From contig NW_024704757.1 of NCBI RefSeq assembly GCF_018977255.1, positions 15,748,001 through 15,812,000 on the forward strand: a stretch of 64,000 nt of DNA. Reading direction: 5' to 3'. The stretch's first letter is position 1, and the number at the start of each line of letters is the position of its first letter. Shown piece by piece: positions 52,600 through 52,736 of the stretch. The position numbers and the translations under genes are program-made. Below the pieces are notes generated by a model, which was given only the letters and a program-made list of their open reading frames with translations, was not told the DNA's origin and did not search any database. Source of the stretch: Callorhinchus milii (taxonomy: Eukaryota).

Positions 52600-52736
52600 G
52601 TACAAGAGTAAGGAGAGGGCCTTCACTGAGTACTGTTAAGAAATGGCAGGACGAGGCGGGCAAAAAACATCCCGAGAAAGAGTTTGCAGCCATGAAGAAG
52701 TATTGCAAGGTCATTCGGGTCATTGTCCACACTCAG
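52600..52736 (+). pseudogene. RPL3L: Relic exon (exon 4 equivalent) of ribosomal protein L3-like, frameshifted
   Basis: AG/GT-flanked 137-nt exon reading [12 protein letters not shown][+1 nt, in-frame TAA][51 protein letters not shown] is the RPL3L-type sequence. Head-to-head with NDUFB10, as is human RPL3L. No other RPL3 exons were recognised. Confidence 0.85.

Follow-up and report, generated by a model that had tools for sequence, protein, structure and literature searches.

A single frameshifted RPL3L exon in Callorhinchus milii, probably a unitary pseudogene

In the window analysed here, a 64-kb stretch of Callorhinchus milii DNA in which all positions below are counted, the place of the heart-and-muscle ribosomal protein gene RPL3L is taken by one frameshifted and decayed exon. 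We consider it likely that this exon is a unitary pseudogene: RPL3L was lost in place, and what is left of it decays neutrally and makes no protein. The gene, which is intact in sharks, rays and most bony vertebrates, is likely gone from C. milii, the elephant shark. Unitary pseudogenes are a known class, with primate GULO as an example, and a lineage-specific one is an ordinary, common kind of loss. The interest lies in the gene affected.

Table 1. Relic exon, its parts and the neighbouring features, in window coordinates
Feature	Position	Strand	Remarks
Relic RPL3L exon	52600..52736	+	137 nt; uL3 codons 122 (last base) to 167
Acceptor, TAG	52560..52599	+	pyrimidine share 0.61
Donor, GT	52737..52738	+	
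Doubled T, one extra base	52636..52637	+	frameshift in this assembly; TAA at 52637-52639 in the exon's own frame
GC-rich tandem array	52056..52390	+	8 copies of a 10-base motif; where exons 1-3 would have been
Interspersed repeat fragment	52820..52949		up to 29 matches elsewhere in the window; 83 bp past the donor
NDUFB10	48961..52022	-	four coding exons; ATG at 52022; head-to-head with the relic
RPS2	45475..48475	+	7 coding exons; 277 aa in frame; synteny marker
TBL3 exon	27042..27236	-	human TBL3 is the best natural protein match, E 3.5e-29; gene about 14-31.2 kb; synteny marker
NOXO1-type exons	8188..9361	+	SH3; p47phox C-terminal motif below cut-off; synteny marker
Presumed TEX2-like gene: last coding exon, inferred 3' UTR and AATAAA	53015..54175	-	stop at 54036-54038; convergent with the relic

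The relic exon and its decay

The relic, which we take to be exon 4 in human RPL3L numbering, has a length equal to 1 + 45 x 3 plus one base. It is bounded by an AG at 52598-52599 and by the donor GT, and the pyrimidine share of its acceptor is inside the range of the six RPS2 acceptors (0.55-0.82). In the exon's own frame 52601-52636 encodes 12 residues, which are followed by TAA. The next frame, read from 52638, encodes 33 residues aligning to uL3 135-167 (best PDB E 3.9e-12), and with an X placed at the frameshift the exon spans uL3 residues 123-167. It belongs to the uL3 family: 140 of 148 candidates passed in the homology search, and every one listed has PF00297. The match scores 62 bits and the best of 500 shuffles of a 2-kb stretch reached 26.6 bits, so we do not regard it as a chance match.

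In the genomic ORFs of other records (P0005 and P0050, for example) the transition from intron-like sequence to uL3 falls on both borders of the relic, and we therefore take its ends to be true exon borders and not those of a retrocopy. A processed (retro) pseudogene was rejected: there is a single exon, its homology stops at the AG and the GT, and neighbouring exon sequence is absent. The sequence-only reading had described a lone exon with intact AG/GT at RPL3-family boundaries and a 1-nt insertion that leads to a stop. Both descriptions hold, the insertion being present in the assembly as one of two adjacent T. If the exon were spliced in, translation would stop after 12 codons, and it should make no protein. 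We also looked at a 78-codon ATG frame that runs from 52575 through the shifted frame, for which a search restricted to at least 80 aa listed no matching record, and we take it to be chance.

The disabling lesions at the locus are the frameshift, the stop, the missing exons and five private changes, all of them seen at assembly level. A doubled T is a typical residual error of long-read assemblies. One C. milii assembly was made from PacBio CLR reads, according to the accessible part of PMC12952989. RPS2, NDUFB10 and the leucine-rich-repeat gene described below have 0 frameshifts over 2535 coding nt, so that no more than about 0.16 indel errors would be expected over the 137 nt.

The substitutions point to decay independently of the frameshift. 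Set against 61 intact vertebrate uL3 rows, five residues are private to the relic (K127E, K128R, K132E, L146P and D149E, each 0/61), and four of the five sit in columns that are otherwise invariant in those rows. Each private change is one base away from the consensus residue. Private residues are wholly lacking in 39 of the 61 intact genes, and the highest number in any one of them is four, three of these at invariant columns. The changes KKK>KER and QL>HP at conserved sites, both noted earlier from the letters of the exon, are there, and K132E and D149E come in addition; Q145H is also found in 2 of 41 RPL3L. Counting against a pseudogene are the features that are still RPL3L-like, namely the two splice sites and 39 of the 45 codons.

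The locus and the missing exons

The gene with exons at 8188-9361 is presumably NOXO1, and Pfam gave no match for one ORF of its region. We take human NDUFB10 to lie head-to-head with RPL3L, the arrangement seen here. The 176-aa NDUFB10 product is identical to C. milii record P0285 (176/176 residues), and a search with this protein returned 4 proteins, with sharks absent among them. The gene order in the window, NOXO1-TBL3-RPS2-(NDUFB10)-relic exon, is that of the RPL3L locus, and so the relic occupies the position of an RPL3L ortholog, beside RPS2, TBL3 and NOXO1 (and NDUFB10). The accessible part of PMC2121648 gives NOXO1-TBL3-RPS2-RPL3L as the order common to human, chicken, frog and Tetraodon.

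There are other features in the window that we record here. A 392-aa two-exon leucine-rich-repeat gene with a hydrophobic C-terminal stretch lies at 40236-41722 (+), between RPS2 and a RING + TRAF zinc-finger gene at 33623-36846 (+). The latter shares the strand of RPS2 and faces TBL3 head-to-head; we assume that it is RNF151-like, and its orientation may differ from that in human. Rfam places an ACA64 match (SNORA64-type, 42 bits) at 42717-42839 (-), upstream of and opposite to RPS2 and outside the RPS2 introns, and finds no snoRNA within RPS2 at cut-off. A minus-strand non-coding host of the ACA64-type match may exist, head-to-head with RPS2. Two minisatellites have long open frames, one at 3267-3667 with period 27 (15 copies, 97% matches) and one at 2172-3008 with period 44 (20 copies).

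An intact RPL3L has ten exons (PMC6123807, in its accessible part) and an ORF of about 407 aa. At this locus we have one frameshifted exon only, and hence a remnant. No other uL3 exon was found in the 64-kb window by tblastn with 7 full-length proteins or by an unfiltered HMM search in six frames, and none in 52023-54035 by tblastn with 16 full-length RPL3L proteins. Weak tblastn matches elsewhere in the window (at most 26.6 bits) were rejected as exon relics since they are no better than the shuffle maximum. With about 80% identity between the relic and intact RPL3L, the other nine exons would be detectable if they were present.

The distances given in the sequence-only reading stand, with the NDUFB10 ATG 577 bp and the downstream stop 1299 bp from the relic. 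The convergent gene on the right is presumably TEX2-like. Pfam was blank for both of its exons tried (2/2), which with the NOXO1-region ORF makes 3 blanks in 9 queries, and the Atlas gave only a PH-domain lead under 0.9. The claim that there is no room for the other exons was slightly overstated, since 2013 bp separate the NDUFB10 ATG from the downstream stop codon and the missing coding sequence amounts to about 1085 nt. What truly speaks against further exons is the lack of any homology in this interval.

On the left, the 577 bp are mostly GC-rich array. It lies just upstream of the NDUFB10 ATG, its motif (presumably YY1-type) is absent elsewhere in the 64 kb, and no RPL3L promoter of its own is recognisable at the locus. 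The array may be an amplified promoter element or a variable-number repeat. On the right, the interspersed repeat may mark a deletion breakpoint. We believe that at least two deletions occurred, one on each side: the promoter of RPL3L itself would have gone together with exons 1-3, and exons 5-10 separately. With one exon so well kept, any others left in place would be visible too. The proposal that RPL3L was present in the lineage and then lost in situ by deletion is supported, and so are the identity of the gene, taken from its locus, the decay of the exon and the origin of the DNA from a cartilaginous fish.

We think it unlikely that RPL3L is still alive in C. milii, whether moved or duplicated elsewhere with the relic left over, or hidden here by an assembly collapse combined with an erroneous extra base. 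The five private replacements cannot stem from one indel error, and a collapse would be required on both sides of the relic. The tandem array is a place where the assembly could collapse, and it and a high-copy repeat flank the relic. Fifteen public runs, from one organism and five studies, contain part of 52400-54400 (shares of sampled words under 0.2 were not used), and three runs of one study, one of which may be the source data, contain 0.89-0.93 of 201 sampled words. This supports 52400-54400 as real DNA and argues against a living gene, although word shares do not resolve a single base or joins. C. milii proteins were among the records searched, yet no C. milii RPL3L is among the matches listed; in the elasmobranch cluster described below, 15 of 26 members were listed, and the other 11 leave some room for a living copy. 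As a lead only, two runs that we guess to be RNA contain 0.55-0.58 of the 52400-54400 words, about what the downstream last exon and its UTR ending near 53015 would give.

Less probable again is that the coding gene is dead and its exon is kept for another purpose, either spliced into a non-coding RNA that starts at the bidirectional promoter of NDUFB10 or acting as regulatory DNA on the promoter side. The AG, the pyrimidine tract and the GT are intact and the GC-rich motif array is about 210 bp away, as this would have it, but with about 5% of sites changed we infer that all four splice-site bases would stay unchanged by chance in about 4 of 5 cases. A single run, which we guess to be RNA but which may be DNA, contains 0.83 of the 52400-54400 words, more than the share of the downstream last exon and UTR; against this, none of the runs is recorded as RNA.

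RPL3L, RPL3 and the intact orthologs

For the paralog question we compared the relic with 41 RPL3L (15 elasmobranch and 26 bony-vertebrate) and 20 RPL3, hand-picked from the search matches. All 20 RPL3 controls are from bony vertebrates. V164 of the relic is found in 38/41 RPL3L and 0/20 RPL3, K158 in 27/41 and 1/20, A152 in 28/41 and 2/20, and A141 in 12/41 (9/15 of the elasmobranchs) and 0/20. In leave-one-out sorting a profile placed 40/41 RPL3L and 20/20 RPL3 correctly (60/61), and it scores the relic +29 bits towards RPL3L. With this profile and its bony-vertebrate RPL3 controls, starfish uL3 reaches +36 and limpet +4; most of the RPL3L-like states of the relic are therefore ancestral, and for this reason the name RPL3L comes from the locus. 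The residues by themselves would exclude only bony-vertebrate-type RPL3, and it is synteny that names the relic RPL3L. That the relic is an RPL3 exon, copied here at the DNA level, and not RPL3L is the least probable of the readings and very unlikely: K158 and V164 are ancestral, being present in starfish uL3 too, and the RPL3 controls are from bony vertebrates only, but the relic sits where RPL3L is expected, the bony-vertebrate RPL3 have A164 in 20/20 and A141 in 0/20, and the best named vertebrate matches are nearly all called uL3-like or RL3L.

Functional orthologs are found in related lineages, both in elasmobranchs and in bony vertebrates. Intact RPL3L of 355-532 aa is present in 15/15 listed shark and ray species, all in one 26-member cluster (90%) that we reached through a skate protein among the matches to gar RPL3L. 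No chondrichthyan RPL3 is among the 15 of 26 cluster members listed. No holocephalan RPL3L is among the matches listed (120 + 120 matches, 15 of 26 cluster members and a minority of 8000 candidates). In a quick IQ-TREE tree of 63 rows, which are full-length proteins and do not include the exon of the window, the 15 elasmobranch and 26 bony-vertebrate RPL3L form a group with SH-aLRT 99, and RPL3 stands apart (98). Because elasmobranch RPL3L groups with that of bony vertebrates, RPL3L predates the jawed-vertebrate split, and the accessible part of PMC10287911 says that it 'emerged in early vertebrates'. The sequence-only reading had taken the relic as evidence of this age; the age holds, and the relic is not needed for it as elasmobranch RPL3L is already annotated. 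We also observed that carp and zebrafish RPL3L are not among the 120 listed matches of the gar search, in which characin, catfish and milkfish are present, and a second natural loss is possible there.

The closest intact counterparts are the elasmobranch RPL3L, such as Leucoraja XP_055507076.1, Scyliorhinus canicula XP_038676440.1 and Heterodontus XP_067912854.1. They have the same exon, with 32-36 of 44 scored residues identical to the relic, and most share A141, A152, K158 and V164 with it. However, they are full-length proteins, and the relic is one exon with a frameshift and five private changes. With mammalian RPL3L (uL3L, the striated-muscle RPL3 paralog) the relic shares the family, the exon boundaries and the RPS2-TBL3-NOXO1 neighbours, but it has no ORF and no recognisable promoter of its own, and 9 of 10 exons are absent. 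It resembles unitary pseudogenes in general in that a decayed exon lies at the site of the ortholog, which sister lineages have intact. It differs from them in being one little-decayed exon with all the others deleted.

Age of the loss and its meaning

Once freed from selection, the exon would have collected 5-6 single-base replacements over its roughly 109 non-synonymous sites, or 0.046-0.055 per site. At 1.0e-3 per site per My the loss would be 46-55 My old (95% 15-120), and at 1.6e-4 it would be 290-340 My old, both rates being from the accessible part of PMC5499810. This is weak dating. PMC12952989, in its accessible part, puts the divergence of Callorhinchus from Chimaera at about 187 My ago. 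We hold it as tentative, and somewhat short of an even chance, that C. milii has no RPL3L at all and RPL3-only ribosomes in heart and muscle, that the loss happened about 50 My ago (15-120, at the faster rate), after the Chimaera split at 187 My, and that other chimaeras keep the gene.

Judging from the DNA, C. milii is likely a natural knockout of RPL3L, as had been proposed. RPL3 presumably fills in, which would leave heart and muscle with RPL3 ribosomes only, the condition of Rpl3l knockout mice. In the accessible part of PMC11722222, human and mouse knockouts are viable and mild, while missense variants kill newborns, and the viable knockouts make a loss in C. milii less surprising. Knockout mice and homozygous loss-of-function humans (accessible parts of PMC11722222, PMC10119107 and PMC10287911) likewise have RPL3L absent and presumably RPL3 in its stead, but they are individuals with mild phenotypes and the C. 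milii case would be a whole-species loss.

We found no report of natural RPL3L loss and no paper joining RPL3L and C. milii in the literature, mostly outside subscription journals. The supplement of PMC3964593 contains neither RPL3L, 'ribosomal protein L3' nor NDUFB10, and the main text of PMC3466250 does not contain 'ribosomal'. The accessible parts of PMC10313321, PMC7671327, PMC4219774 and bioRxiv 10.64898/2026.06.23.733628 hold nothing on cartilaginous-fish RPL3L.

The finding touches the question of whether RPL3L ribosomes do anything that RPL3 ribosomes cannot, for a gene retained for more than 400 My despite mild knockouts. Its value is comparative and not mechanistic, as the elephant shark is hard to work with and such losses are common. 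If the loss is real, one can ask whether RPL3 persists in adult heart and muscle and whether RPL3 has gained RPL3L-like changes. If it is also younger than the Chimaera split, other chimaeras would be a close natural comparison for the purpose of a muscle-specific ribosome. A real loss, whatever its age, would show RPL3L to be dispensable at the level of a species, with sharks and rays as the intact sister group.
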